NCBI GenBank assembly: GCA_900542275.1
Contig: UQMW01000002.1
Location: 20,210-84,209 of the forward strand
DNA length: 64,000 bases
Reading direction: 5' to 3'
Source: an uncultured Collinsella sp.
Lineage (GTDB): Bacteria; Actinomycetota; Coriobacteriia; Coriobacteriales; Coriobacteriaceae
A program made the position numbers and the translations under genes. The notes below the pieces were generated by a model. The model ran no database searches, was not told the DNA's origin, and was given only the letters and a program-made list of their open reading frames with translations. The first letter of the stretch is position 1. Every line of letters starts with the position of its first letter. Shown here piece by piece: positions 5,193 to 17,850 of this stretch.

Positions 5193-5446
5193 AAAACGCG
5201 TAAAGCATGGCGAAGACCGTGCGCCGCTGTGCGAAGTAGTCCGCTACCTTTCAAGACAAGCTCCACCATGTAGAGGTCCCGCTCGGGATCTCTTCTTTTG
5301 GGCGCCGTCCCGTTCGTTTTTTGATGCGGTTCCCTACATTCCTCACTGGCGCCGGCAAAAAATGGGGATAGAGTAGGACAAACGCGTCGAATACGAACGG
5401 CGGGGGAGAGTGGGCGAGTGCGCCCGCGTGGGAGAGGTTGCCGTCC

Positions 5447-8400
5447 ATGTTGGAGCTCAAAGGTATTTGCAAAAGATACGTTACGCAGTCGTTTACGCAG
5501 GTGGCGCTCGACAACGTGAGCCTGTCTTTTCGGGATAACGAGTTCGTGGCCATTCTGGGTCCCTCGGGTTCGGGTAAAACCACGATGCTCAACGTTATCG
5601 GCGGACTGGACCATTTCGATTCCGGCGACCTGCTCATCGACGGCATCTCGACCAAGGACTTTCGCGATCGCGATTGGGATGCCTATCGCAACAACCGCAT
5701 CGGCTTTGTGTTCCAGAGCTATAACCTCATTCCACATCAGACCATTTTGGAAAACGTGGAGCTGGCGCTCACGCTCACGGGCGTGGGGCATGCCGAGCGC
5801 CGCCAGCGTGCGCGCGAGGCGCTGGAGAAAGTCGGCCTGGGCGAGCACGTTAACAAGCGTCCGAGTCAGCTGTCGGGCGGGCAAATGCAGCGCGTGGCCA
5901 TTGCCCGCGCCCTGATTAACGATCCCGAGATTGTGCTGGCAGACGAGCCGACCGGTGCCTTGGATTCAACGACATCCGTACAGGTCATGGATCTGCTCAA
6001 GGATGTTGCGCGCGACCGTCTGGTCATCATGGTCACGCACAATCCCGAGCTGGCGTACCAGTACGCCACGCGTATCGTCAACCTGGCGGACGGTAAGATC
6101 ACCGACGATTCCGACCCCTTCGATGTTGCCAAGGCCGCACGTCGCGAGGCTAAGCCTACGCGCAAAACCTCGATGAGCTTTGCGACGGCGCTGGGACTTT
6201 CTGCCCGAAACCTCATGACCAAGAAGGGCCGCACGGCCATGACTGCCTTTGCGGGCTCGATTGGCATTATCGGTATCGCGGCGATTCTGGCGCTGTCCAA
6301 TGGCGTAAACGGCTACATCAAAAAGGTCGAGGAGGATACGCTCTCGAGCTACCCACTCACCATTTCCAAGCAGGATTACGACCTGTCATCCATGATGGGC
6401 GGGCAGGGTGCTGCGGATGATGACTCGCCTGAAAACGTGGATTCGTCCGACGACAGTGCCGGCGGCAAGGCTAAGGGAACCGATAAGATTCCTGTGGTCA
6501 CGGCCGTAAAGGATATGTTTGCGAGCGTTAAGTCCAACGACATGACGAGCTTCAAGGCATGGCTCGATGCCGGTGGCGACGGCATCGATAAAGAGGTCAA
6601 CGCCATTCAGTACGGCTACGGTGTATCGCCGGTTGTCTATCGTGCCGGCAAGGGCGATGAGAAGCCTGTCCGGCTGGTGCCCAACGCCATGACCGAGGCC
6701 ATGAGCGGAGGCGCGAGCTCGGCGGCAACGGTGAGCATGGAATCCATGGGAACCTCGGTCTTTAACGAGATGATTGACGATCAGAGCCTGCTCGACAGCC
6801 AGTACGATGTCGTCGCCGGTCATTGGCCCACGTCTGCCAACGAAGCCGTGATGGTGCTTTCGAGCCGCGGCACGGTGGGCGACTATACGCTCTATAGCAT
6901 CGGTGCGCTGGATATCGATGAGCTCAACGATCTGGTAAACAGCGCTATGACGGCTGACGGTGGGGTCGAAACGCCCGAGACCGGCACCGACTTTACCTAC
7001 GACGATGCGCTGTCTACCACGTTTAAGGTGCTGTCGCCGGCTGATGCGTATCGTAAAAACGAAGAGACCGGCATGTGGACTGACATGTCTGGCGATGCCG
7101 ACTTTATGGCGTCCAAGGTTGCTGACGGTATCGACGTGCGCATTGTGGGCGTGGTGCGACCCAACGAGACGGCTAACGCGAGTGCATTGTCCCCGGGCAT
7201 TGCCTACACGCATGCGCTGACTCGCCAGCTTATGGAGCGCGCTGCCGATTCGCAGATCGTGCAGGAGCAGCTTGCCCACCCCGAGACGGATGTCTTTACG
7301 GGTAAAACCTTTGATGAGCTGCAAGGCGAGGCCAAGCAAGGCGTTGATTTGGGCAGCATGTTCAGCGTGGACGAGGCGGCACTGAAGAGCGCGTTCTCGT
7401 TCGATACGTCTGCGCTTTCGGGCACGGCCAGCGGTATGGACCTTTCTGGTATCGACTTGTCCGGTTTGGACATTGACCTTTCGGGCGTTGGGAAGGACAT
7501 CGACTTCAGCGACATCATGGTCAAAGCGCCGGCTCCAGATTTCTCGGGCATCTTTGACGGTCTGGAGCTCACACCCGAGCAAATGCAGCAGGTGGGAACG
7601 CTTGCCAACCAGCTGTTTGAGGGCTTTATGCAGTCGGATCAGTTTAAGGCGCTGTCGCCCGAAGATCTTAAGGACGCGTCAAAGCTCGCTGCCGCATTCT
7701 CGACGTATCTTGAGAATGATGCCGCAGCCCAGCAATGCCTGGCTCAATTGAAGGCGCTCGGCGGCGATGCCCTGGCCGAGCGCCTGCAGCAGGCGATGAC
7801 CGACTATGTACAAAAGCAGCTGGCTCCGTATCTGCAGCGGGCTATGGATCAGGTGATGAAGTCGATCAGCGATCAGATTGCGGCGACGGTATCGTCCCAG
7901 CTCAAGGCGGGCGCAGCGGGGCTTATGGACCAGATGGCGACGCAGATGTCTTCGAGTTTTGCCAACCTGGCGAGCGCCATGCACGTGGACGCGAGCGCCT
8001 TTGCTCGTGCCATCCATTTCAACATGGACGCCGAGGACCTGAGTTCGCTCATGATGAGCTATGCCAAGGCTTCGAAGCTCACCTACGACAACAATCTGAC
8101 CACGTTGGGCTATGCGGATGAGGCAGACCCCATCTCGGTTAAGATTTTCCCGCGCGACTTTGAGGCCAAGGAGCGCGTACTCGATCACATCGATGCGTAC
8201 AACAAGCAGGTCAAAGCCGCCGGTCATGATGATCGGGTAATTTCGTACACCGACTACATGGGCATCATCATGGGTTCGGTGACCGACATCGTGAACACCA
8301 TCAGCTTGGTGCTCATTGCATTCGTGAGCATCAGCCTGGTCGTGAGCTCCATCATGATTGGCATCATCACCTACATCAGCGTGCTGGAGCGCAAAAAGGA

Positions 8401-8701
8401 GATTGGCATCCTGCGCGCGATCGGCGCGTCGAAGCGCAACGTGGCCAACGTATTCAATGCCGAGACATGTATCGAGGGCCTCGTTGCCGGCGTCTTTGCT
8501 ATTGTCGTCGTGGTGGCCGTGAGCTTCCCGGTTAATGCCTGGGCGCTTGCTGCCAAACAGGTCCCCAATCTGATGAGCCTGCCCGTGCAGGATGCGCTGG
8601 TGCTCATTGCAATTTCGGTGCTGCTGACGGTCGTTGCCGGTCTGCTGCCGGCTCGCAGCGCATCCAAAAAAGACCCCGTCGAAGCCCTGCGCTCCGAATA
8701 A
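5447..8701 (+). CDS. MacB-type ABC transporter, fused ATPase and FtsX-family permease with very large extracytoplasmic domain
   Basis: Walker A GPSGSGKTT, signature LSGGQMQRVAIARAL, Walker B VLADEPTGALD; C-terminal FtsX-like TM bundle (ERKKEIGILRAIGASKRNV). ATG 5447 is preferred over TTG 5438 by RBS spacing. Confidence 0.85.
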   Translation: MLELKGICKRYVTQSFTQVALDNVSLSFRDNEFVAILGPSGSGKTTMLNVIGGLDHFDSGDLLIDGISTKDFRDRDWDAYRNNRIGFVFQSYNLIPHQTILENVELALTLTGVGHAERRQRAREALEKVGLGEHVNKRPSQLSGGQMQRVAIARALINDPEIVLADEPTGALDSTTSVQVMDLLKDVARDRLVIMVTHNPELAYQYATRIVNLADGKITDDSDPFDVAKAARREAKPTRKTSMSFATALGLSARNLMTKKGRTAMTAFAGSIGIIGIAAILALSNGVNGYIKKVEEDTLSSYPLTISKQDYDLSSMMGGQGAADDDSPENVDSSDDSAGGKAKGTDKIPVVTAVKDMFASVKSNDMTSFKAWLDAGGDGIDKEVNAIQYGYGVSPVVYRAGKGDEKPVRLVPNAMTEAMSGGASSAATVSMESMGTSVFNEMIDDQSLLDSQYDVVAGHWPTSANEAVMVLSSRGTVGDYTLYSIGALDIDELNDLVNSAMTADGGVETPETGTDFTYDDALSTTFKVLSPADAYRKNEETGMWTDMSGDADFMASKVADGIDVRIVGVVRPNETANASALSPGIAYTHALTRQLMERAADSQIVQEQLAHPETDVFTGKTFDELQGEAKQGVDLGSMFSVDEAALKSAFSFDTSALSGTASGMDLSGIDLSGLDIDLSGVGKDIDFSDIMVKAPAPDFSGIFDGLELTPEQMQQVGTLANQLFEGFMQSDQFKALSPEDLKDASKLAAAFSTYLENDAAAQQCLAQLKALGGDALAERLQQAMTDYVQKQLAPYLQRAMDQVMKSISDQIAATVSSQLKAGAAGLMDQMATQMSSSFANLASAMHVDASAFARAIHFNMDAEDLSSLMMSYAKASKLTYDNNLTTLGYADEADPISVKIFPRDFEAKERVLDHIDAYNKQVKAAGHDDRVISYTDYMGIIMGSVTDIVNTISLVLIAFVSISLVVSSIMIGIITYISVLERKKEIGILRAIGASKRNVANVFNAETCIEGLVAGVFAIVVVVAVSFPVNAWALAAKQVPNLMSLPVQDALVLIAISVLLTVVAGLLPARSASKKDPVEALRSE

Positions 8702-10075: not shown

Positions 10076-11035
10076 ATGTTGATGTATTTATCGCTGGCCC
10101 CTATGGAGGGCATTACCGGGCATGTGTTCCGCCGCGTGCATGCGGAGTGCTTCGGCGCGCTCGATTGTTATTACACGCCGTTTTTGCCGCCGCCGCGGGT
10201 GGGCAACCGCTTTGGCGGCAAGGCGTTTAAAGAGGTCGACCCTGCCAATAACCAGGGGCTTAACGTGGTGCCCCAGCTGATGTCCAAGAATGCGGACGAG
10301 TTTGTGTGGGCGGCGCAGGTGCTTGCCGATATGGGGTACCGCGAGGTCAACCTCAACCTTGGTTGCCCCTCGGGTACGGTTGTCGCGAAGGGTAAGGGTT
10401 CGGGCTTTCTGCGCAACCTGGATGAGCTCGAGGTGTTTTTGAGCGACGTGTGCGAACGCTCGCCCTTGCCGGTGTCGGTCAAGACCAGGCTGGGGCTCGA
10501 ATGCGACGACGAGTACGAACGCGTGCTCGACCTCTATTGCCGTATGCCGCTGACAGAGCTGATCGTGCATCCGCGCGTGCAAAAGGACCGCTATACGGGC
10601 TCGCCGCGCAAAGAGTTTTACGGCGAGACGCTGGAGCGGGCGCCGTTCCCCGTGGCCTATAACGGCGACATCTTTGATCTTGAGGACATGGATGCGCTGG
10701 TGGAAGCCTATCCCGGAACACGCCACGTAATGTTGGGGCGCGGCTTGCTTGCGAATCCCGCGCTGGCTCGCATGGTTAAGGGCGGCCCTGCCGCCACCGC
10801 CGCTGAGCTGCAACGCTTCCACGACATGTTGTTTGCGGCTTATGCGGACGAGATTGGGGGCAACGCGGTCTTTCGCATGAAAGAGTGGTGGTTCTACGCC
10901 AAATGCGCCTTCGCCGATCCCGCGACCGTTCACAAACTCGTACGCAAGACCAAAAAGGTCGATGAATACCGTGCCGCTGTCGACCGTGTCTTTCGCGAGC
11001 AGCCACTTGCGCCTATAGCCCGCTTCCACGGCTAG
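10076..11035 (+). CDS. tRNA-dihydrouridine synthase family protein
   Basis: LAPMEGITGHVFR, NLNLGCPS, VHPR...Y.G motifs of the Dus TIM-barrel flavoenzyme family. Confidence 0.8.
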   Translation: MLMYLSLAPMEGITGHVFRRVHAECFGALDCYYTPFLPPPRVGNRFGGKAFKEVDPANNQGLNVVPQLMSKNADEFVWAAQVLADMGYREVNLNLGCPSGTVVAKGKGSGFLRNLDELEVFLSDVCERSPLPVSVKTRLGLECDDEYERVLDLYCRMPLTELIVHPRVQKDRYTGSPRKEFYGETLERAPFPVAYNGDIFDLEDMDALVEAYPGTRHVMLGRGLLANPALARMVKGGPAATAAELQRFHDMLFAAYADEIGGNAVFRMKEWWFYAKCAFADPATVHKLVRKTKKVDEYRAAVDRVFREQPLAPIARFHG

Positions 11036-11209: not shown

Positions 11210-12082
11210 TTAGGAGACGAGCGCTTCTATTACGCGCTCGGCACCGGAGTTGATCAGAATGCTGCGATCGGCGATTTCTGCCGGAGCGACTGCCTCGCTA
11301 AGGTTAACGCACGCGTATGTGGCGCGCTCATTTTTGGCTGTCATCTGCCAAAACGGGTACTTGATGATGGCAGGCGTGTTGCCGCCCACCCCAAGCTCAA
11401 AGAACAGAACGCGCATATTGCCGTGGCGGTGCAGAAAGTCCTGGTAGCGATCGGCGGCAGCATACCAGCCCTTATCCTGCACAAACGTATCATCGGCGCG
11501 CAGGTTCATCGTAAGCGGGGCGCCACAATGGGGGCAATGGGGCACAAGTGCAGACGGGATGCGCAGGTTCTGTTGGGCGGCGACCATATGGCGTACGAGC
11601 TCTTCGTTGTCCCAGGTTTCCTGACAGCAGGGTTTGCTGCACTGGAACAGGCCGTAGTCGCCCTGCGTGTAAAAGAGCCGTTGCTTATCAAAGCCAGCGC
11701 GCTGGAAGCAATGGTCTACGTTTGTGGTCAGCACAAAGTAGTCGTGATCGCGCAGCAGGCCCAAAAGCTGCTCATAGATCGGCTTGGGTACGGGGTCGTA
11801 TCGGTTGCACAGAATGTAGCGGCTCCAAAACGCCCAGTACTCCTCGAGCGAATCATAGGGATAGAAACCGCCGGAATACATATCGGTAAAGCCGTAGCGT
11901 GCGGCGAAGTCACCAAAGAGCTTCTTGAAACGCTCGCCCGAATAGGTGTAGCCCGCTGCGGTGGATAGTCCCGCGCCAGCGCCGATTACCACGGCGTCGG
12001 ATGCGTCGAGTGCGGCTCGGAGCTTATCGATTTGTTTGGAGAAGGTTGCAGTAGATTGCCTCGTCAGACGCGAGAAATACAT
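11210..12082 (-). CDS. SIR2-family protein, SirTM-like (macrodomain-linked sirtuin)
   Basis: VVIGAGAGLSTAAG NAD-binding motif, TTNVDH, QGDYG, Zn-ribbon cysteines CSKPCC...CPHCG. Overlaps the upstream macrodomain gene by 59 nt. Confidence 0.8.
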   Translation of the reverse strand: MYFSRLTRQSTATFSKQIDKLRAALDASDAVVIGAGAGLSTAAGYTYSGERFKKLFGDFAARYGFTDMYSGGFYPYDSLEEYWAFWSRYILCNRYDPVPKPIYEQLLGLLRDHDYFVLTTNVDHCFQRAGFDKQRLFYTQGDYGLFQCSKPCCQETWDNEELVRHMVAAQQNLRIPSALVPHCPHCGAPLTMNLRADDTFVQDKGWYAAADRYQDFLHRHGNMRVLFFELGVGGNTPAIIKYPFWQMTAKNERATYACVNLSEAVAPAEIADRSILINSGAERVIEALVS

Positions 12083-12809
12083 TGAAGATCACCTTAAGGT
12101 CGGGGTCGTTATGGTCCAGATGATGACGAACGGCATCGATGGCGACGCGCGCGGCAGCCTCTTGCGGATAGCCAAAGACGCCAGTAGAGATGCAGCAGAA
12201 CGCGAGAGTACCGAGTCCCTGGTGTGTCGCCTCTTTCAAGCAGCTGGTGTAGCAGCGGCGTAGGAGCAATTCTTCGCGAGGGCCAGGCTTATGGCCAGGC
12301 ACGATAGGGCCAACGGTGTGGAAAACGTAGTTGCTGGGCAGGTTGAACGCCGGCGTAACCTTGACGTGTGCCGTCGGCTCCTCATGTCCTTGCTTGCACA
12401 TGAGGCCGGCGCACGCTAGGCGCAGCTGCATTCCGGCGTAGGTGTGGATGGCGTTGTCAATGCAGCGATGCCCTGGCACAAAACAGCCGAGCATTTGGCT
12501 GTTGGCGGCATTGACGATGGCGTCGGCCTTAAGTAGCGTAATGTCGCCGCGCCAAATGGCAACGCGATTGCGATAGGGGAGTGTGCCGGCATCGGTCGCC
12601 CCGCCGCGCTCAAGAAGGCACTGCTGCAAGTAAGCGTCTTGAATGTTGAGCTTCTCGTCCGCAAGCGCCTCGGGTGGACGTACGTTCATAAGGGCTCTGA
12701 GCAAATCGCGTTGTTCGCTGGCTCCGGCAGGAACAGCAATGGTGCGCCCGTCTTGCCGCTCATCGAGCAATGCTCTGATAAGCCAAATGCGGCGCTCTGC
12801 CTGATTCAT
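12024..12809 (-). CDS. macrodomain protein-ADP-ribose hydrolase
   Basis: GDITLLKADAIVNAANSQMLGC and CCISTGVFGYP macro-domain motifs with an N-terminal helical extension. Confidence 0.8.
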   Translation of the reverse strand: MNQAERRIWLIRALLDERQDGRTIAVPAGASEQRDLLRALMNVRPPEALADEKLNIQDAYLQQCLLERGGATDAGTLPYRNRVAIWRGDITLLKADAIVNAANSQMLGCFVPGHRCIDNAIHTYAGMQLRLACAGLMCKQGHEEPTAHVKVTPAFNLPSNYVFHTVGPIVPGHKPGPREELLLRRCYTSCLKEATHQGLGTLAFCCISTGVFGYPQEAAARVAIDAVRHHLDHNDPDLKVIFNVFLASDEAIYCNLLQTNR

Positions 12810-12950: not shown

Positions 12951-13283
12951 CTAGGAGTTTCGTACGAGCTGCTGATAATCGGTGCCCCATTCCACCAGGG
13001 AATCGATGATGGGCATAAGGCTTTGACCGAGCTCGCTAAGCGCGTATTCGGTACGGATGGGCGTTTCGGGAATGACGGTGCGCGTGATAAGCCCCGCGGC
13101 ATCCATTTCCTTTAGGTTTGACGAGAGCACCTTTTGGCTGATGCCGGGAATAGCGCGGTGTAGCGCATTGAAGCCCAACGGCTGCTCAACGAGCTGCTGG
13201 ATGATATAGATCTTCCATTTGTTGCCAAAGAGCTGAAAGCACGTGGCGACGGGGCAGAGAGGCAGTTCTTCTTTGGTGAGCAT
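12951..13283 (-). CDS. HxlR-family transcriptional regulator
   Basis: CPVATCFQLFGNKWKIYIIQQL...LSSNLKEMDAAGLITR winged-helix typical of HxlR/MarR-like regulators. Divergent from the Cys-rich peptide gene. Confidence 0.85.
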   Translation of the reverse strand: MLTKEELPLCPVATCFQLFGNKWKIYIIQQLVEQPLGFNALHRAIPGISQKVLSSNLKEMDAAGLITRTVIPETPIRTEYALSELGQSLMPIIDSLVEWGTDYQQLVRNS

Positions 13284-13482
13284 AGCAACCTCGCAATCAG
13301 GTAAGTTGCTTACATTATTGCAGCCGCTGTTACTCGCGACTACTACTTACCTTTTGGTAACTGGCTAATAGATTAGTGCCTTCTTTTGGGTGGTCCGCTT
13401 TCCTCGCATGATGCATATAGACGCAAAGAGCGTCAAAAACCGGATGGCTTCGACTGGCCGTCCTCGATTGAAAGGAAATGCC

Positions 13483-13728
13483 ATGTCCGAGAATCTTGAG
13501 AACGTCGCCGCTTTCGCCTCCTGCGGTACTGCCGACCCTGCGCCCGCTTGCGGCTCCACCGATCCCAAGGCGGCCCTTGCTTGCGGTGCTGCCTGCGGCT
13601 CTGCCGACCCGGCTGTCGCTCCCGCCTGCGGCTCCGCTGATCCCGCGGCCGCTCCTGCCTGCGGCTCTGCCGACCCAAAGGCTGCTCCGGTCTGTGGCTC
13701 CGCTTGCGGCGCTGCTGACGCTCAGTAA
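13483..13728 (+). CDS. Cys-rich ACGX/CX3D-repeat peptide (candidate RiPP precursor, 81 aa)
   Basis: ATG 13483 behind AAAGGA gives MSENLENVAAFASCGTADPAPACGSTDPKAALACGAACGSADPAVAPACGSADPAAAPACGSADPKAAPVCGSACGAADAQ. It has 8 Cys-Gly, six of them C-G-x-x-D, with 11-aa periodicity. The track ORF 13390..13728 has a longer, unlikely N-terminus. Confidence 0.7.
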   Translation: MSENLENVAAFASCGTADPAPACGSTDPKAALACGAACGSADPAVAPACGSADPAAAPACGSADPKAAPVCGSACGAADAQ

Positions 13729-13752
13729 GTAATTGCTAGGAAGGGACTCGTA

Positions 13753-14373
13753 ATGGATGCTCAGACTTGCCTCAAAAAGATGCAGCTTGCCGGGACGCTC
13801 CCGCTGGCAACTGTGGACGAAAGTGGCGCGCCGCAAATTCGCTGCGTGAGCGCTGTTCATTACGAGCCCCGTGCTATCTACTTTCTTACGGCGCGTGGCA
13901 AAGAGATGGCCCGTCAGCTTATGGCAGACGGGCGTGTCCAAACGCTTGTCCACACGCGGTTTAACGAGATGATCCGCATGTCCGGCGTTGCCACTCCCGT
14001 CTCGGAGTCCGGGCAAGTTCACTGGCGCGACGTGATTTACGCCGAGCAGCCGTATCTTGCCAACGTGTATCCCGGTGATACGCGCGAGATCAACATCATT
14101 TTTAAGGTTGAGAACATAGTGCTCGACTACTTTAACTTGGGAGTTCATCCTATCGAGCGCGCGGTTTTTACCCTAGACGAAGGCACGGCGCCTGCGCCTG
14201 TTAAGGGCTTCCGCATCGATACCGATGCGTGTATCGGTTGCGGTACCTGCCTCGAACGCTGTCCACAGAAGTGCATCGAGCCGGGGGACTCGTATCGCAT
14301 TGAGCCTGAGCACTGCCTGCATTGTGGTGCCTGTGCGGAAAATTGCCCCGTCTGCGCCGTTGAACGTCTGTAG
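13753..14373 (+). CDS. pyridoxamine 5'-phosphate oxidase-like FMN-binding domain fused to 2x[4Fe-4S] ferredoxin
   Basis: N-terminal split-barrel-like region (LATVDESGAPQIRCVSAVHYEPRAIYFLTARGKEMARQL). C-terminal CIGCGTCLERCP and CLHCGACAENCP. Confidence 0.75.
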   Translation: MDAQTCLKKMQLAGTLPLATVDESGAPQIRCVSAVHYEPRAIYFLTARGKEMARQLMADGRVQTLVHTRFNEMIRMSGVATPVSESGQVHWRDVIYAEQPYLANVYPGDTREINIIFKVENIVLDYFNLGVHPIERAVFTLDEGTAPAPVKGFRIDTDACIGCGTCLERCPQKCIEPGDSYRIEPEHCLHCGACAENCPVCAVERL

Positions 14374-14420
14374 CCCAAATGTCGTCATCAGTTTTAACAT
14401 CGACCAAGGGGAGTCCCACG

Positions 14421-15467
14421 ATGCAAAAATCTGCGTTTGCCTTCCAATGGCATATTACGGATGAATGCGACCAGCGCTGCAAACATTGTTATATCTTCGC
14501 CAACGGTGCCTGTGCTGGTTTTAAGCGCATGCCGTGGGAGCAGATGGTCGAGATCGTCGATCAAGCCCAGGCGCTCTGCGACCTCATCGGTCGCCAACCG
14601 TACTTTTACGTTACGGGCGGTGACCCCATTCTCCATCCCGATTTTTGGCGCCTTGCCGAGCTCTTGCACGAGCGGGGTTTTATGTGGTGCGTGATGGGCA
14701 ATCCGTTCCATCTAACCGATGAGGCCTGTGTCCGCATGAAAGAGTTGGGGTGCCGCAAATACCAGCTCTCGCTCGATGGGCTCGAGAAGACGCACGATTA
14801 CTTCCGCAAGCCCGGCTCGTTTGACGAGACGTTGCGTGCGATTGGATGCCTTAAGCGTGCAAGTATTTGGGTCGCCATTATGAATACGGTTTCGAGCATG
14901 AATGCCGCCGAGCTGCCGCAGCTTATTGACCTGGTGGCAAGCCTCGAGGTTGATGTATTCGCCTTTGGGCGATACTGCCCCACCTCGGGCCAAAAGCGCG
15001 TTGAGTTCCATCTGGAGCCGCTGGAATATCGCGACGTGCTGCTGGCCGCGCAAGAGCGCATGGAGTTTCACCAGGCTGCGGGCTGCAAAACGTTCTTCCA
15101 GCTCAAAGATCACCTGTGGACGCTTCTTTTGTGGGAGCAGGGTAAGTTCACCATCCCTGCGAACGCCAAGCCCGGCATGATCTACGACGGCTGCCACTGC
15201 GGTACGGGCCATATGACGGTGCTGCCTACGGGCGATGTCTACGCGTGTCGCCGCATGGAGAGCAAGGTGGGCAACGTCGCTGAGAACTCGCTCGAGGATC
15301 TTTTCTTTTCACCGCAGATGGAAGCAAAGCGTGACTTTAGGAAGTTCAAGAAGTGCTCCAAATGCGAGCTTTTTGGCTGGTGCCGTGGCTGCCCCGCTGT
15401 GACGTATGGCTACACGGGTGATATGTACGACGCCGATCCACAGTGCTGGAAAGAGATTGAGGAATAG
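14421..15467 (+). CDS. radical SAM/SPASM domain peptide maturase
   Basis: HITDECDQRCKHCY (CX3CX2C); C-terminal SPASM cysteines CHCGTGHMTVLPTGDVYAC and CSKCELFGWCRGCP. ATG 14421 behind AAGGGGAG is preferred over 14379. Confidence 0.85.
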   Translation: MQKSAFAFQWHITDECDQRCKHCYIFANGACAGFKRMPWEQMVEIVDQAQALCDLIGRQPYFYVTGGDPILHPDFWRLAELLHERGFMWCVMGNPFHLTDEACVRMKELGCRKYQLSLDGLEKTHDYFRKPGSFDETLRAIGCLKRASIWVAIMNTVSSMNAAELPQLIDLVASLEVDVFAFGRYCPTSGQKRVEFHLEPLEYRDVLLAAQERMEFHQAAGCKTFFQLKDHLWTLLLWEQGKFTIPANAKPGMIYDGCHCGTGHMTVLPTGDVYACRRMESKVGNVAENSLEDLFFSPQMEAKRDFRKFKKCSKCELFGWCRGCPAVTYGYTGDMYDADPQCWKEIEE

Positions 15468-15625: not shown

Positions 15626-15892
15626 CTAGGCAATCATTGCATCAAGTGTTATGAGTTCCCTGAGCCGTTCCGTGCGCGTTTGCCCATGGCGTTTGGCTTT
15701 TTCGTCAAACGCCTCAAGAACCGATTCGCCCACACGTGCCGATAAAACAACGCTTGGCTCATCAGAGATCGGTGGCCTTCCCAGCTTAACGGTGCGGCCT
15801 TTCGGCCATTCATCTTTTTCGTAAGCTTCCGCGGCTTTCTCTAACTCTCCAGGGGCAAATCCCATCATTTTTTCAAGCTGCTCAGCATTCAT
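15626..15892 (-). CDS. ribbon-helix-helix (CopG/BrnA-like) antitoxin-type protein
   Basis: ATG 15892 behind AGGAGG gives MNAEQLEKMMGFAPGELEK...GRPPISDEPSVVLSARVGESVLEAFDEKAKRHGQTRTERLRELI. The pattern of a GRPP linker followed by an RHH strand-helix is typical of type II antitoxins. No intact partner toxin was seen. Confidence 0.5.
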   Translation of the reverse strand: MNAEQLEKMMGFAPGELEKAAEAYEKDEWPKGRTVKLGRPPISDEPSVVLSARVGESVLEAFDEKAKRHGQTRTERLRELITLDAMIA

Positions 15893-16297
15893 AGCGCCTC
15901 CTGTCGATCGACATAATGTCGAGCGCTGGTTCTCGGATTCCCTTTTTTGTATACAGTTTTGTAGACAAAAACACAAGCAGCTTATCAGGCTAATTAGCTT
16001 ATTTTGAACCGCCTGCTCGATAGGAAATGAGCATTGACGGCTTCGATACTCCTTTGCTTTTCAGCTTGGAATTTGGATGCTCGTTGAACTTCCGGAGGGG
16101 AGCGTTTTATTAAACTATCGAGATTCTGGGCAGGAGCTCTCACCGGTCTTCGATAGTGGGACCAGCTTAATTTGCGACACAGTGTGTCACGAATTGGAGT
16201 AGTCGTTGGGTGTCCTTCAATGGCTAGTCATACAAGAACGTCCAAGTGCCGGATTTTGTCATTTAGAGTCGTCCCTAACGACTATTCTGGAGGGTCG

Positions 16298-16525
16298 TGG
16301 TCAAAAAAGGGCAAATATGAGTACTGTTGCCATTATGGTTGCATTAATTTTGCTATAAAAAGTAGCTCCTGATGAGATTTGTTCCCATTAGGAGCAACTT
16401 TTATTGAACATATGAGGAGAAATAGCGTCATCTGCGGGCGCATGGGACGTTGAATAGTTCCTGAAATGATCAAAATTGCTGCTACTAAACAGGTAGCAGT
16501 ACTCATATTTGCCCTTTTTTGACCA
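16298..16525. repeat. 29-bp perfect inverted repeat pair flanking a 170-bp AT-rich core
   Basis: TGGTCAAAAAAGGGCAAATATGAGTACTG at 16298..16326 and its exact reverse complement at 16497..16525. Arm similarity continues imperfectly inward for about 27 nt. Confidence 0.9.
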
Positions 16526-16598
16526 TAGCTCCCTCGGAAACTCTTTCCCGAGGCATCAAACAGCCATAATCCAAAGGTCGCCTCAAACAATTAGCCGG

Positions 16599-16690
16599 TT
16601 AAGAGCGTCCATGGCTACCCAAAAGCTGTACGTCAGCATCCAAAGATGTCGAAAAATGTCGACTTTGGATGCTGGCGTACATGTTTGGGT
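16599..16690. repeat. partial composite intergenic repeat (hairpin module complete)
   Basis: TTAAGAGCGTCCATGGCTACCC then AAAAGCTGTACGTCAGCATCCAAAGATGTCGAAAAATGTCGACTTTGGATGCTGGCGTACATGTTTGGGT. Confidence 0.8.
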
Positions 16691-16725: not shown

Positions 16726-16971
16726 CTAGAGCAGGTTCTTCTGTATCCATGCGATGATGTCACTCGATTCGTAGAGTGGCTTGCCGTCGATGAACAGGCA
16801 GGGAACCTGGCGTTTTCCGCCGACGGCGATGAGCGTCTGCTCGGCCTCGGTATCGGTCGAGATATTGCGCTCGGGGATGGTCACACCGTTATCGGCAAGG
16901 AATCGCTTGACTTTTATGCAATACGGGCAGCCGGTCATAACGTACAGCGTGAGCTCATGATTAGTAGCCAT
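16726..16971 (-). CDS. glutaredoxin-like protein
   Basis: LTLYVMTGCPYCIKVKRFL...GKRQVPCLFIDGKPL (CPYC active site, glutaredoxin fold). Start at the MATNHE Met. Confidence 0.8.
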   Translation of the reverse strand: MATNHELTLYVMTGCPYCIKVKRFLADNGVTIPERNISTDTEAEQTLIAVGGKRQVPCLFIDGKPLYESSDIIAWIQKNLL

Positions 16972-17022
16972 GGGTCTCCAATCGGTTGAGGTTTCGATTG
17001 AAATACCCAAAGCCGCCGCGGT

Positions 17023-17850
17023 CTATGCGCGAGCCGACGACAACTCGATTGCCTGAACCAGAAACGTCGTGGCTCCGGTGCCGCAGGGCTTGTCGTAGTA
17101 GTCAACAAAGCGCTGATCGGCAAGATAGCCGTGGGCGAGGCCCAGGTATGCTTCGTCTTGGGGCTCGTGTCCCCAGTTAAGGGCAATCCATCGACGGTGC
17201 ATTGCGACAAGTTTGTGGGCCTCGTTGCTCTCTGGGTCGCCAATGCCCATGGCAATCGAGAGTTGACCCAGAATAGCGCGTTCAAGTTCCTTCATGTCGT
17301 TCCATGTCTCGGGGTCCATATCCAGCAGTGCTTCATTTGCTGCATCGATAGCCTCATCGCCATAGCGCGCCCGCGCTTCGGCGCCGTAGCGCTCCTCGTT
17401 TTCCTGCACGGTGCGCCAGCGCTCCAGTTGCGGCAGGACGGCGCCCATGAGCGAGACGGCTTCGTCGAGCGACATGCCGGTGTTTTGCGCCAGCCGCGGG
17501 GCGCAATCCTCGATCATCGCCTCCATGGTGGTGTCGTAGGTGTACTTGCCGTGGTCGTAGCACCACTTGCAGTAATGGTCGGTCGTGGCGCCCGTGGCAT
17601 CGGTGCCGCAGTCGTCGGGCGTGAGCACCATGCCGCAGCTCTGACAATAGTGCTCGGGCATTTCGAGCAGGTGGGACAGAGGCTCGCCGGTCACGGCGGC
17701 GATGAGCTTCATCATGTCGATACCCGGGGTGACTTCGCCGCGCTCCCAACGGCTGACGGCTTGGCGTGTGACGAAGAGCTTGGCGGCGAGCTGCTCCTGA
17801 GTAAGGTGATGGGCACGACGGACAGCAATGAGCTTTTCTGCGAAGGCCAT
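17023..17850 (-). CDS. XRE-family HTH regulator with zinc ribbon and TipAS-like effector domain
   Basis: N-terminal LTQEQLAAKLFVTRQAVSRWERGE; CQSCG...CKWC zinc ribbon; C-terminal TipAS-like region (HRRWIALNWG...YLADQRFVDYYD). Confidence 0.75.
   Translation of the reverse strand: MAFAEKLIAVRRAHHLTQEQLAAKLFVTRQAVSRWERGEVTPGIDMMKLIAAVTGEPLSHLLEMPEHYCQSCGMVLTPDDCGTDATGATTDHYCKWCYDHGKYTYDTTMEAMIEDCAPRLAQNTGMSLDEAVSLMGAVLPQLERWRTVQENEERYGAEARARYGDEAIDAANEALLDMDPETWNDMKELERAILGQLSIAMGIGDPESNEAHKLVAMHRRWIALNWGHEPQDEAYLGLAHGYLADQRFVDYYDKPCGTGATTFLVQAIELSSARA

Follow-up and report, generated by a model that had tools for sequence, protein, structure and literature searches.

On sequence grounds, the Cys-repeat peptide and the radical SAM/SPASM enzyme encoded in this DNA from an uncultured Collinsella sp. 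are a member of the ACGX system (acgA/acgM), which is catalogued in NCBIfam/TIGRFAMs and uncharacterized; a literature search for the ACGX system returned no paper on acgA/acgM. Here, the pair is proposed to lie within a larger intracellular stress cassette, in which an AcgM-modified redox peptide would be switched by ADP-ribosylation, a reading that we hold tentatively, at slightly less than an even chance. An internal stress system is favored over an antibiotic because the cassette retains flavin enzymes, a redox-type regulator and a pair of enzymes that add and remove ADP-ribose. The first-pass annotation had likewise leaned toward a redox role inside the cell and away from an antibiotic, and the cassette context strongly supports that preference. 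Its remark that no protease or exporter is encoded in cis also stands, none being conserved across 80 loci. The window, i.e. the whole stretch of DNA analyzed (64,000 nt; GCA_900542275.1, contig UQMW01000002.1, positions 20,210–84,209 of the forward strand), contains the features listed in Table 1. A minus-strand ORF at 13330–14148 (272 aa), which runs across the peptide gene and into part of that for the fusion in a high-GC region, was taken to be a shadow ORF.

Table 1. Features of the ACGX locus, numbered from the first nucleotide of the window.
Feature	Position	Strand	Basis
Class M sirtuin (SirTM) ADP-ribosyltransferase	11210..12082	-	PDB 5a3a match
Zn-dependent macrodomain (protein-ADP-ribose hydrolase), downstream of hxlR	12024..12809	-	NF003163, PDB matches
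HxlR/DUF24-family regulator, divergent from peptide operon	12951..13283	-	Pfam HxlR PF01638, 93.8 bits
Conserved 41-nt cis element	13345..13385	.	Locus comparison
AcgA-like precursor peptide	13483..13728	+	81 aa; translation, position next to acgM in orthologous loci
33-nt tandem repeat, 3.4 copies, inside peptide gene	13589..13700	+	TRF
PNPOx-like FMN split-barrel + 2x[4Fe-4S] ferredoxin, 206 aa	13753..14373	+	Pfam, AlphaFold, Foldseek
AcgM, radical SAM/SPASM	ORF 14379..15467, likely start 14421	+	TIGR04340, Pfam

AcgM scored 528.8 bits against TIGR04340 (cutoff 400; E = 5.8e-159), with a match that runs from position 2 to position 341 of the 341-position model, in agreement with the ACGX family named in the first-pass annotation. 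The CX3CX2C radical SAM motif (CDQRCKHC) and the full set of SPASM Cys residues described there were recovered by Pfam (Radical_SAM and SPASM). The motif is conserved, as are the SPASM Cys residues in 18 homologues (C258/C260, C276, C312, C315, C321, C324 and C342). Six of the seven SPASM Cys residues are invariant, the remaining one being either the invariant C258 or the nearly invariant C260. Translation probably begins at ATG 14421 rather than at 14379, because homologues, which cover 95–96% of the longer ORF, begin ∼15 residues into it and the purine-rich AAGGGGAG lies 6 nt upstream. AcgM has no N-terminal RiPP recognition element (RRE), the part that binds the leader in PapB-type systems: its radical SAM motif begins as early as residue 16, Pfam detects only Radical_SAM and SPASM, and the AlphaFold model (pLDDT 88.2) has no additional N-terminal domain. 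The gene for the AcgA-like peptide lies 692 nt upstream of acgM, codirectional with it and separated from it by a single gene.

Conservation was assessed in the 80 closest (species-level) of at least 577 confirmed acgM loci. The census of cassette genes was drawn from 24 non-Collinsella loci with ≥4.5 kb of flank on both sides (full-flank loci); Collinsella loci were counted separately, and nitroreductases were told apart from the PNPOx-ferredoxin fusion by sequence inspection and Pfam. The cassette is common in the abundant Collinsella of the human gut, other Coriobacteriia, Lachnospiraceae, Oscillospiraceae and Ruminococcus, and is also found in methanogens. RefSeq names the pair acgA/acgM in Roseburia, where genes for a nitroreductase, a 4Fe-4S protein, a protein-ADP-ribose hydrolase, a Sir2 protein and a DUF1848 protein follow. 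The present locus shares with the ACGX system (TIGR04340/TIGR04341) the enzyme family over its full length, the leader type, the A-C-G-x repeats and the arrangement in one operon. By contrast, peptides of the Coriobacteriia type are built mainly from single ACGxxDP units in place of ACGSACGAGDK doublets, with scores under the cutoff of the peptide model, the PNPOx-ferredoxin gene here sits between the peptide and enzyme genes, and the SirTM and Macro genes are transcribed divergently together with hxlR.

The peptide, MSENLENVAAFASCGTADPAPACGSTDPKAALACGAACGSADPAVAPACGSADPAAAPACGSADPKAAPVCGSACGAADAQ, has the short leader followed by tandem A-C-G-x repeats that the acgA family requires; its 12-residue leader, MSENLENVAAFA, is conserved and common to orthologues. 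Translation agrees with the eight Cys residues reported earlier, every one followed by Gly and six of them in a C-G-x-x-D context (CGTAD, CGSTD, CGSAD three times and CGAAD). The remaining two open the CGAAC and CGSAC doublets, and the residue before the eight C-G pairs is Ala in six cases, Ser in one and Val in one. The 11-residue periodicity that had also been claimed is real but only partial, and is seen in the DNA as the 33-nt tandem repeat. This repeat is the source of repeat-number polymorphism in the peptide, the core Cys number of Collinsella orthologues ranging from 4 to 12.

Against the TIGR04341 (acgA) HMM, the peptide scored 8.8 bits (E = 2.5), below the cutoff of 28; other peptides of the Coriobacteriia type scored 0–19 bits and Lachnospiraceae-type orthologues 41–103 bits. 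Despite this sub-cutoff score, its locus marks the peptide as a positional orthologue of acgA. In ∼75 of the 80 loci, which span three phyla and include methanogens, acgM adjoins a gene for a peptide that shares this leader and has A-C-G-x repeats. Thus, the association of the small ORF with the enzyme, on which the first-pass interpretation depended, does not arise by chance. Across the family (n = 472 Cys), position −1 is Ala in 88% of cases, position +1 is Gly in 96% and position +4 is Asp in 61% or Cys in 29%. The doublet-first Cys residues (139/472) have no acidic residue of their own, the nearest being a shared one at +8; among Cys residues that no second Cys follows at +4, most are accompanied by an acidic residue between +3 and +8.

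The gene between those of the peptide and AcgM encodes the fusion of a PNPOx-like domain with a ferredoxin that had been described earlier, and Pfam confirmed both parts (PNPOx_N, 38.8 bits, and two Fer4 motifs). Its AlphaFold model (pLDDT 91.8) has an FMN split-barrel fold, and Foldseek matched it to PNPOx-like proteins, GSP26, NimA/C and PhzG, with TMt values of 0.75–0.78 for the closest compact split-barrel proteins. The first-pass annotation regarded this gene as an insertion in the cassette, a view that did not survive comparison: the fusion recurs in 17 of the 24 full-flank non-Collinsella loci, in all Collinsella loci with adequate flank, and in most cassettes across Coriobacteriia, Clostridia and Bacteroidota. 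The check that it had proposed, tabulation of the neighborhoods of radical SAM homologues, showed co-occurrence in most loci, and reverse look-ups agreed, with fusion homologues at ∼60% identity leading back to ACGX cassettes. By its recurrence, the fusion is a conserved accessory oxidoreductase of the cassette. An oxidoreductase (the fusion, a nitroreductase or a quinone oxidoreductase) is encoded in every one of the 24 full-flank non-Collinsella loci, with a nitroreductase in 15. In one protein (P0216), a Nitroreductase Pfam domain occurs on a single polypeptide with PNPOx and Fer4 domains.

The single most likely chemistry for AcgM, for which we would claim appreciable but less than even probability, is formation of a thioether between Cys sulfur and an Asp or Glu carbon at C-G-x-x-D sites, as made by PapB. 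The substrate motif that the first-pass annotation ascribed to PapB was borne out by the literature, in which this enzyme acts on repeated CXXXD motifs and forms thioethers there (PMC12373016). PapA, the freyrasin precursor, likewise has repeated C-x-x-x-D motifs with small intervening residues, PapB is likewise a radical SAM/SPASM enzyme with two auxiliary clusters, and its product contains a Cys-S to Asp C-beta thioether (−2 Da per link). Cys-X3-Asp accounts for 6 of the 8 Cys residues of the present peptide and for 61% of the 472 Cys residues family-wide. The thioether reading is weakened because AcgM scored 54.4 bits against the PapB family (NF047865, cutoff 340) but 182.6 against SbtM (TIGR04082, cutoff 350), because it lacks an RRE, and because 29% of the ACGX Cys residues are doublet-first and without an acceptor of their own. 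In addition, the ACGX leader is very short and both Ala at −1 and Gly at +1 are invariant-like; PapB, by comparison, is agnostic to what lies between Cys and acceptor.

By HMM, SbtM is the characterized family closest to AcgM. Chemistry of the SbtM/anSME type may therefore be considered, albeit with limited confidence: hydrogen abstraction from the Cys C-beta would lead to oxidation of each Cys in A-C-G, with the FMN enzymes serving to finish or recycle this oxidation. One example would be a 5-thiooxazole (−4 Da per Cys) for which the preceding Ala supplies the carbonyl; the resulting aromatic thiols would act as antioxidants or metal ligands. SbtM works at a small-residue-Cys motif (Gly-Cys/Sec) and is described as anSME-like, giving a product at −4 Da that absorbs near 304 nm (PMC9204691), and the thiooxazoles of bufferins bind copper (PMC11626156). 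SbtM and AcgM share SPASM clusters and a Cys flanked by a small residue, and the score extends over the whole of AcgM. Ala at −1 and Gly at +1 are better conserved than Asp and form a context common to all Cys residues, including the doublet-first ones; no full-flank cassette lacks an oxidoreductase, whether of the FMN or another type. By contrast, the score is far under the SbtM cutoff, with only positions 193–515 of the 516-position model matched, such that an N-terminal region of ∼190 residues in SbtM is missing from AcgM. Moreover, the SbtM motif is Gly-Cys or Gly-Sec rather than repeated A-C-G-x-x-D, no selenocysteine was seen here, and the acidic residue within +3 to +8 of most non-doublet Cys residues is left unexplained. 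The relation to anSME is similarly divided. It is of the same size as AcgM, lacks an RRE, is the best full-length fold match (TM 0.77/0.73) and targets the Cys C-beta in unfolded substrates; however, AcgM reaches only 53.8 bits by sequence, neither a sulfatase gene nor a C/S-x-P/A-x-R motif occurs here, and the ACGX substrate is a dedicated adjacent peptide.

The divergent HxlR regulator noted in the first pass was recovered as listed in Table 1, and hxlR is present in 21 of the 24 full-flank non-Collinsella loci. Its best NCBIfam matches were the redox regulators RrpB and RrpA, both below cutoff. An N-terminal Cys lies in the motif ELPLCPVAT here and ELPxCPVAT in orthologues (consensus ELPxC[PD]VAT) and occurs in every orthologue with an alignable N terminus. 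The protein looks like a redox-type HxlR regulator and is predicted to be a thiol sensor. The 41-nt element, found by comparing loci, consists of ACTTACCTTTTGGTAACT (a GTTAC-N6-GTAAC-type palindrome), then TAATAGATT and then AGTGCCTTCTT. Of 78 loci, 45 have the strict pattern at a fixed distance, and in nearly all loci a GTGC(G/C)T(A/T)CTT box precedes the peptide ATG by ∼76–107 nt, in Coriobacteriia as well as Clostridia (two phyla). The element is probably an HxlR operator that overlaps the promoter of the peptide operon. Rfam gave nothing credible for the whole window at gathering thresholds or for 13250–13800 at E values up to 1, so that no known riboswitch or leader RNA accounts for the box. 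An inverted-repeat search of the intergenic region reported none; the palindrome escaped it because its arms are only 5–6 nt. A scan for sigma-70 promoters and terminators gave no matches above shuffled expectation.

Adjoining the cassette at 11210–12809 is an ADP-ribosylation pair that was absent from the first-pass annotation. The macrodomain, of the MacroD type, scored 316.9 bits against NF003163 (cutoff 272) and matched PDB entries 8rsi, 5kiv, 8rsl and 8rsm at E values of 1e-60 to 1e-67; residues 1–257, including the N-terminal extension, align to 8rsi, and the protein has both a NAAN motif and, as GCFVPGHRC, the Cx4HxC Zn-loop. The SirTM gene overlaps that of the macrodomain by 59 nt, and its product matched Streptococcus pyogenes SirTM (PDB 5a3a) at 237 bits (E = 1.9e-69). 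Class M sirtuins have QG in place of the catalytic HG (His to Gln; PMC11490716), and the QG of the two proteins is aligned. The relatives recovered by protein search with SirTM as the query were all ≥75% identical to it. SirTM is linked to acgM in 16 of the 24 full-flank non-Collinsella loci and in 24 of 25 Collinsella loci, and Macro in 13 of the former 24; the pair is present in about two thirds of cassettes or species and absent from about one third. It lies upstream and divergent in Collinsella and downstream elsewhere, sometimes with swapped gene order. Because gene order varies between loci, the linkage is not simple synteny. A phage-defense role for the Sir2/macro genes was considered and rejected, PADLOC having returned only generic radical SAM (pVip) matches and a weak Csa3 match to the HxlR protein.

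SirTM systems respond to oxidative stress and are linked to FMN oxidoreductases, and SirTM ADP-ribosylates an Asp of a sulfur-cofactor carrier only once the carrier is modified (PMC4518038; PMC11490716). The extended SirTM operon of Staphylococcus and Streptococcus (GcvH-L, LplA2, OYE and LLM; Rack et al. 2015, PMC4518038; PMC11490716) likewise has overlapping SirTM and Zn-Macro genes with diagnostic motifs. It has in common with the present cassette FMN oxidoreductases, a small sulfur-bearing carrier with an acidic residue, a carrier-modifying enzyme and a context that points to stress. By contrast, neither GcvH-L nor LplA2 is among the genes flanking the pair here, which are hxlR and a gene for a Dus-like FMN protein. 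The candidate carrier is instead a low-complexity Cys-repeat peptide with a radical SAM modifying enzyme, an HxlR-type protein is the regulator, and the PNPOx-ferredoxin fusion, a nitroreductase or a quinone oxidoreductase replaces OYE and LLM. Reviews of bacterial ADP-ribosylation name GcvH-L as the sole known SirTM substrate and give no targets for SirTM/Zn-Macro pairs outside the extended operon (PMC11490716).

The proposed cassette would operate as follows. Oxidant or electrophile stress would release HxlR control, leading to expression of both divergent operons. AcgM would modify Cys residues of AcgA, which would stay cytoplasmic as a multi-site, sulfur-based redox or scavenging peptide, and the PNPOx-ferredoxin fusion may pass electrons to the AcgM clusters or serve to recycle the peptide. 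SirTM and Zn-Macro would switch AcgA off and on by reversible ADP-ribosylation, in parallel with the lipoyl-GcvH-L/SirTM/Macro/OYE/LLM system of staphylococci and streptococci. A broader form of this proposal, which we regard as possible but doubtful, is that the AcgM-modified ACGX peptide is the physiological substrate of the “lone” SirTM/Zn-Macro pairs of gut anaerobes. The peptide would then be the radical-SAM-matured ribosomal counterpart of lipoyl-GcvH-L, reversibly ADP-ribosylated on repeat Asp or Cys residues within an HxlR-controlled oxidant/electrophile defense that is recharged by flavin/Fe-S reductases.

The SirTM/Zn-Macro pair may also be a mere neighbor in the same stress regulon, with AcgM, the flavoprotein or an unlinked protein as its target, an explanation to which we assign a modest probability. 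One third of cassettes are without the pair, and Asp conservation is independent of it: the frequency of Asp at +4 of Cys is 0.51 in SirTM-bearing loci and 0.56 in those without SirTM, and Asp is therefore not there only as an ADP-ribose acceptor. Furthermore, GcvH-L, the one substrate proven for SirTM, is a folded protein (PMC11490716). Against a mere neighbor, however, the linkage of SirTM/Macro survives rearrangements across phyla, and neither GcvH-L nor LplA2 is encoded beside the pair here.

It is improbable that the peptide is mainly metal-handling, i.e. a phytochelatin- or metallothionein-like buffer or a cytoplasmic metallophore with its (modified) Cys and Asp residues as ligands. The density of Cys and Asp at i, i+4 (and i+8), the richness in small residues and the variable repeat number are consistent with such a function, for which Cys-derived RiPP metallophores provide precedent (PMC11626156). 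However, the cassette has no conserved metal transporter, metallochaperone or metal sensor of the ArsR/CsoR/MerR type; its conserved regulator belongs to the HxlR type, flavoproteins and ADP-ribosylation enzymes are the partners, and the peptide is without a signal peptide. A conventional secreted antimicrobial ranthipeptide or sactipeptide, exported and freed of its leader in trans, is very improbable: although the radical SAM/SPASM enzyme with a Cys-rich precursor, the freyrasin-like CX3D motif and a MacB-like ABC/FtsX protein ∼5 kb upstream (5438–8701) would suit it, no protease, exporter or immunity gene belongs to the clusters conserved across the 80 loci (nor does the ABC gene), the leader of only ∼12 residues shows no double-Gly site, AcgM has no RRE, and the partners conserved with it are redox and ADP-ribosylation enzymes of the cytoplasm.

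If the peptide is indeed the target of the pair, it would be the first RiPP-like peptide gated by reversible ADP-ribosylation. The conserved linkage names a small, easily synthesized candidate substrate of SirTM together with a candidate prerequisite modifying enzyme, and the question of the SirTM target becomes testable with few recombinant proteins. The chemistry of AcgM would be of interest in either case, as that of a new RRE-less thioether synthase or as a second radical SAM route to Cys oxidation/heterocyclization. The cassette itself may be a widespread oxidant/electrophile defense of strict anaerobes.

Each gene assignment in the first-pass annotation, namely a Cys-repeat peptide, a flavin/iron-sulfur fusion protein, a radical SAM enzyme and a divergent HxlR regulator, was confirmed by translation and domain searches and, for the fusion and the enzyme, by AlphaFold models. 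Placement of the enzyme (AcgM) in the "ACGX system" was likewise sound: a score of 528.8 bits was obtained against TIGR04340 ("radical SAM/SPASM domain protein, ACGX system"), for which the cutoff is 400.

Features of the acg cassette and its surroundings (window positions)
Feature	Position	Strand	Remarks
Dus-family FMN protein gene	10076-11035	+	convergent with SirTM gene; kept at this position in Collinsella only
Sir2-like (SirTM) gene	11210-12082	-	59-nt overlap with macrodomain gene
Zn-macrodomain gene	12024-12809	-	downstream of hxlR; NF003163 match
HxlR regulator	12951-13283	-	divergent from peptide operon
41-nt element	13345-13385		upstream of peptide gene; palindrome ACTTACC-N4-GGTAACT, then TAATAGATT, then AGTGCCTTCTT
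AcgA-like peptide	13483-13728	+	ORF translation MSENLENVAAFASCGTADPAPACGSTDPKAALACGAACGSADPAVAPACGSADPAAAPACGSADPKAAPVCGSACGAADAQ
33-nt tandem repeat	13589-13700		3.4 copies, inside peptide gene
PNPOx_N plus two 4Fe-4S ferredoxin motifs (fusion)	13753-14373		206 aa; 24 nt downstream of peptide ORF
AcgM, radical SAM/SPASM	14379-15467		likely start ATG 14421; CDQRCKHC and conserved SPASM cysteine set
RHH (CopG-like) gene	15626-15976		
Low-GC stretch	15800-16600		GC down to 0.43-0.46, about 0.58 in flanks; only small ORFs
CPYC glutaredoxin gene	16726-17010	-	1.3 kb downstream of acgM
Regulator	17023-17850	-	XRE-type HTH, Zn_ribbon_2 and TipAS antibiotic-recognition domain in one protein; unusual architecture

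Related loci were sought in one genome per GTDB species. At least 577 were confirmed and the best 80 were fetched; gene calls within these loci are crude, and the counts rest on the closest 80 of the at least 577. A full-flank subset comprised the 24 loci from outside Collinsella in which each side extends for at least 4.5 kb. By its relatives the window is assigned to Collinsella, at 95% identity. The sampled relatives belong to Coriobacteriia, many Clostridia, some Bacteroidota-labelled MAGs and Methanobrevibacter, and Methanosphaera plasmid records (NZ_CP118754) also match the ACGX system.

Translation of acgA gives eight Cys residues, each followed by Gly. Six are found as C-G-x-x-D, and each of the remaining two opens a doublet (CGAAC, CGSAC). 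The 11-residue periodicity of the peptide is explained by the 33-nt tandem repeat that underlies it. Core Cys number varies from 3 to 12 over the loci and from 4 to 12 within Collinsella strains alone; this latter range (loci L001-L029 and L055) fits slippage or recombination in the repeat. Designation of the peptide as an ACGX-repeat held in part: in ~75 of the best 80 of at least 577 loci the enzyme gene is preceded by a peptide with a leader and repeats, but the HMM score of the window AcgA against TIGR04341 was 8.8 bits, below the cutoff of 28. Orthologous peptides score 41-103 bits (Lachnospiraceae types), 16-28 bits (two Ruminococcus/Oscillospiraceae-group peptides) and 0-19 bits (Coriobacteriia types). 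Given that these scores are graded, the window peptide is, as judged from its sequence, a divergent AcgA form that the curated model misses.

The residues flanking 472 Cys were tabulated for peptides from the best 80 of at least 577 loci. Ala occupies position -1 in 88%, Gly +1 in 96%, Ser/Ala/Thr +2 in 97% and Ala +3 in 74%, and position +4 is Asp in 61% and Cys (doublet CGSACG) in 29%; these percentages are approximate because the sample holds at least one wrongly chosen non-peptide ORF (locus L030, 13 Cys). Where position +4 is not a second Cys, most Cys are followed at +3 to +8 by an acidic residue, in the usual case Asp at +4; the 139 doublet-first Cys of the 472 have no acidic residue of their own. 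Variants were also observed. One, at L054 5682-5885, has ACGCACG doublets with an extra Cys in place of Ser +2; another, in methanogenic archaea (a Methanobrevibacter MAG, L075 5641-5940, and Methanosphaera, NZ_CP118754), consists of repeated T-A-C-G-S-D-I/V with Asp at +3. No signal peptide was seen in the ACGX peptides of the sampled loci.

Homologues of AcgM begin ~15 residues into the ORF that opens at 14379, the first ~14 residues of which have no counterpart, and a purine-rich AAGGGGAG lies 6 nt upstream of ATG 14421. Given these two observations, translation probably starts at 14421 and not at 14379. Scores against other families were 182.6 bits for the SbtM thio(seleno)oxazole maturase, 130 for AhbD, 129 for TIGR04053, 105 for NirJ, 54.4 for PapB and 53.8 for anSME, and anSME was the best full-length fold match (TM 0.77/0.73). 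The structure model of AcgM contains no extra N-terminal (RRE-like) domain. The gene symbols acgA and acgM are in use at RefSeq, and no paper on the ACGX system was found in the literature searched. By its family scores, AcgM is a true and typical member of a family that is catalogued but uncharacterised.

The fusion had been taken for an insertion, a view that the related loci contradict: it is present in 24 of 25 Collinsella loci and 35 of 55 others (best 80 of at least 577), and in 17 of the 24 full-flank non-Collinsella loci, and is a normal component of the cassette. Its AlphaFold model (pLDDT 91.8) resembles PNPOx-like FMN split-barrel proteins (GSP26-like, NimA/C, PhzG and PNPOx). In Coriobacteriia the fusion lies between the peptide and enzyme genes; in Clostridia it follows the enzyme, usually behind a nitroreductase-family FMN protein (PF00881, 82 bits). 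Some cassettes include a PIG3-type quinone oxidoreductase or DUF1848, and in a Clostridium estertheticum record acgA is directly preceded by a flavin reductase gene. The DUF1848 protein (~310 aa; L033 8286-9221 and L085 9007-9948, both clostridial loci) lies within or ends some clostridial cassettes and gave a strong Pfam DUF1848 match and no NCBIfam match. At least one of fusion, nitroreductase and quinone oxidoreductase was found in all 24 full-flank non-Collinsella cassettes. Tabulation of the neighborhoods of radical SAM homologues, a check suggested at first pass, showed that the fusion co-occurs, and reverse look-ups returned to peptide-enzyme cassettes: the starting points were two fusion homologues of ~60% identity, the first common across metagenomes and the second belonging to a Muribaculaceae MAG, and each lies in such a cassette. 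The database protein P0216 carries a Nitroreductase Pfam domain with PNPOx and Fer4 domains in one polypeptide, and in some contigs a 59-aa nitroreductase remnant (L083 5803-5982) separates acgM from the fusion. Judged by these architectures, P0216 and the remnant link the two flavoproteins functionally.

HxlR was found in 21 of the 24 full-flank non-Collinsella loci. Its best NCBIfam matches, which fall below cutoff, were the redox regulators RrpB and RrpA, and the N-terminal motif ELPxC[PD]VAT was present in every orthologue with an alignable N terminus. The conserved Cys occupies the sensing-Cys position of the redox regulators YodB, HypR and QorR. The 41-nt element follows a common pattern (a GTTAC-N6-GTAAC-type palindrome, TAATA and GTGC(G/C)T(A/T)CTT) at a fixed distance across Coriobacteriia and Clostridia, and had no Rfam match. 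It is probably an HxlR operator overlapping a promoter; in Collinsella, both divergent operons would be controlled from one 199-nt intergenic region.

Passed over at first pass were the two minus-strand genes downstream of hxlR. The macrodomain protein scored 316.9 bits against NF003163 (protein-ADP-ribose hydrolase, cutoff 272), aligns end to end with the Zn-macrodomains 8rsi, 5kiv, 8rsl and 8rsm (E 1e-60 to 1e-67) and contains NAAN and a Cx4HxC zinc loop (GCFVPGHRC). The Sir2-like protein matched Streptococcus pyogenes SirTM (5a3a) with E 1.9e-69 and has Gln-Gly in place of the catalytic His-Gly of deacylating sirtuins. Linkage of SirTM to acgM is seen in 24 of the 25 Collinsella loci; among the 24 full-flank loci elsewhere, SirTM is linked in 16 and the macrodomain gene in 13. 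Across phyla the pair stays near acgM while the arrangement changes: it is upstream and divergent in Collinsella, and downstream and co-directional in other Coriobacteriia and in Clostridia; the order is sometimes SirTM then macrodomain. RefSeq annotation of a Roseburia replicon gives the same gene string. In methanogens the cassettes contain quinone oxidoreductase, fusion and HxlR genes and no SirTM.

Outside the cassette, a cluster of ~94-aa ORFs, perhaps the glutaredoxin, is found repeatedly downstream of acgM, in Collinsella loci only; its proximity may reflect simple synteny or an extra thiol-redox partner. The low-GC stretch that directly follows the cassette may be left over from a DNA insertion.

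PapB-like Cys-to-Asp/Glu thioethers are a plausible product of AcgM, if somewhat short of a probable one. The CXXXD motif of AcgA is exactly that of PapA (PMC12373016), and the acidic residue is conserved with or without SirTM; PapB tolerates acceptors from i+1 to i+7 (PMC12373016). However, AcgM stands far from PapB and has no RRE, the Ala at -1 and Gly at +1 are conserved beyond the need of PapB-type chemistry, and for 29% of Cys there is no separate acceptor. SbtM/anSME-like oxidation of the Cys C-beta, or heterocycle formation, is rather unlikely; consistent with it are SbtM being the characterised family closest to AcgM, the fold match to anSME, the uniform A-C-G context common to all Cys and the constant presence of an FMN or other oxidoreductase (24/24 full-flank non-Collinsella loci). 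The thiooxazole that SbtM makes from Cys retains a reactive thiol (PMC9204691). Some other chemistry is likewise unlikely.

In staphylococci and streptococci, GcvH-L must be lipoylated before SirTM can ADP-ribosylate it at Asp27, and Zn-Macro reverses the ADP-ribosylation; the operon includes the FMN oxidoreductases OYE and LLM and responds to oxidative stress. No SirTM substrate besides GcvH-L is known, and for other SirTM/Zn-Macro pairs the literature gives the targets as unknown (PMC4518038, PMC11490716). The ACGX cassette follows this logic with other parts: a small sulfur-rich carrier (AcgA) with a conserved Asp, a carrier-modifying enzyme (AcgM in the place of LplA2), FMN/Fe-S reductases and the same ADP-ribose writer/eraser pair, together with a thiol-type regulator (HxlR). 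The favored reading of the AcgA product is a Cys-derived peptide that would stay inside the cell, be induced by stress and serve in redox reactions or scavenging; the flavoproteins would recharge it, and ADP-ribosylation would gate it where the SirTM/Zn-Macro pair is present. The first-pass annotation had remarked that no protease or exporter is encoded in cis, and indeed no protease, exporter or immunity gene is conserved in the cassette across the best 80 of at least 577 loci. Given this result, together with the lack of an RRE-like domain and of a signal peptide, an intracellular peptide is favored. No paper joining SirTM and radical SAM was found in the literature searched. What this analysis adds is the conserved coupling of ACGX with HxlR, with flavoproteins and, most importantly, with SirTM/Zn-Macro, which makes the explicitly open SirTM-target question directly testable.
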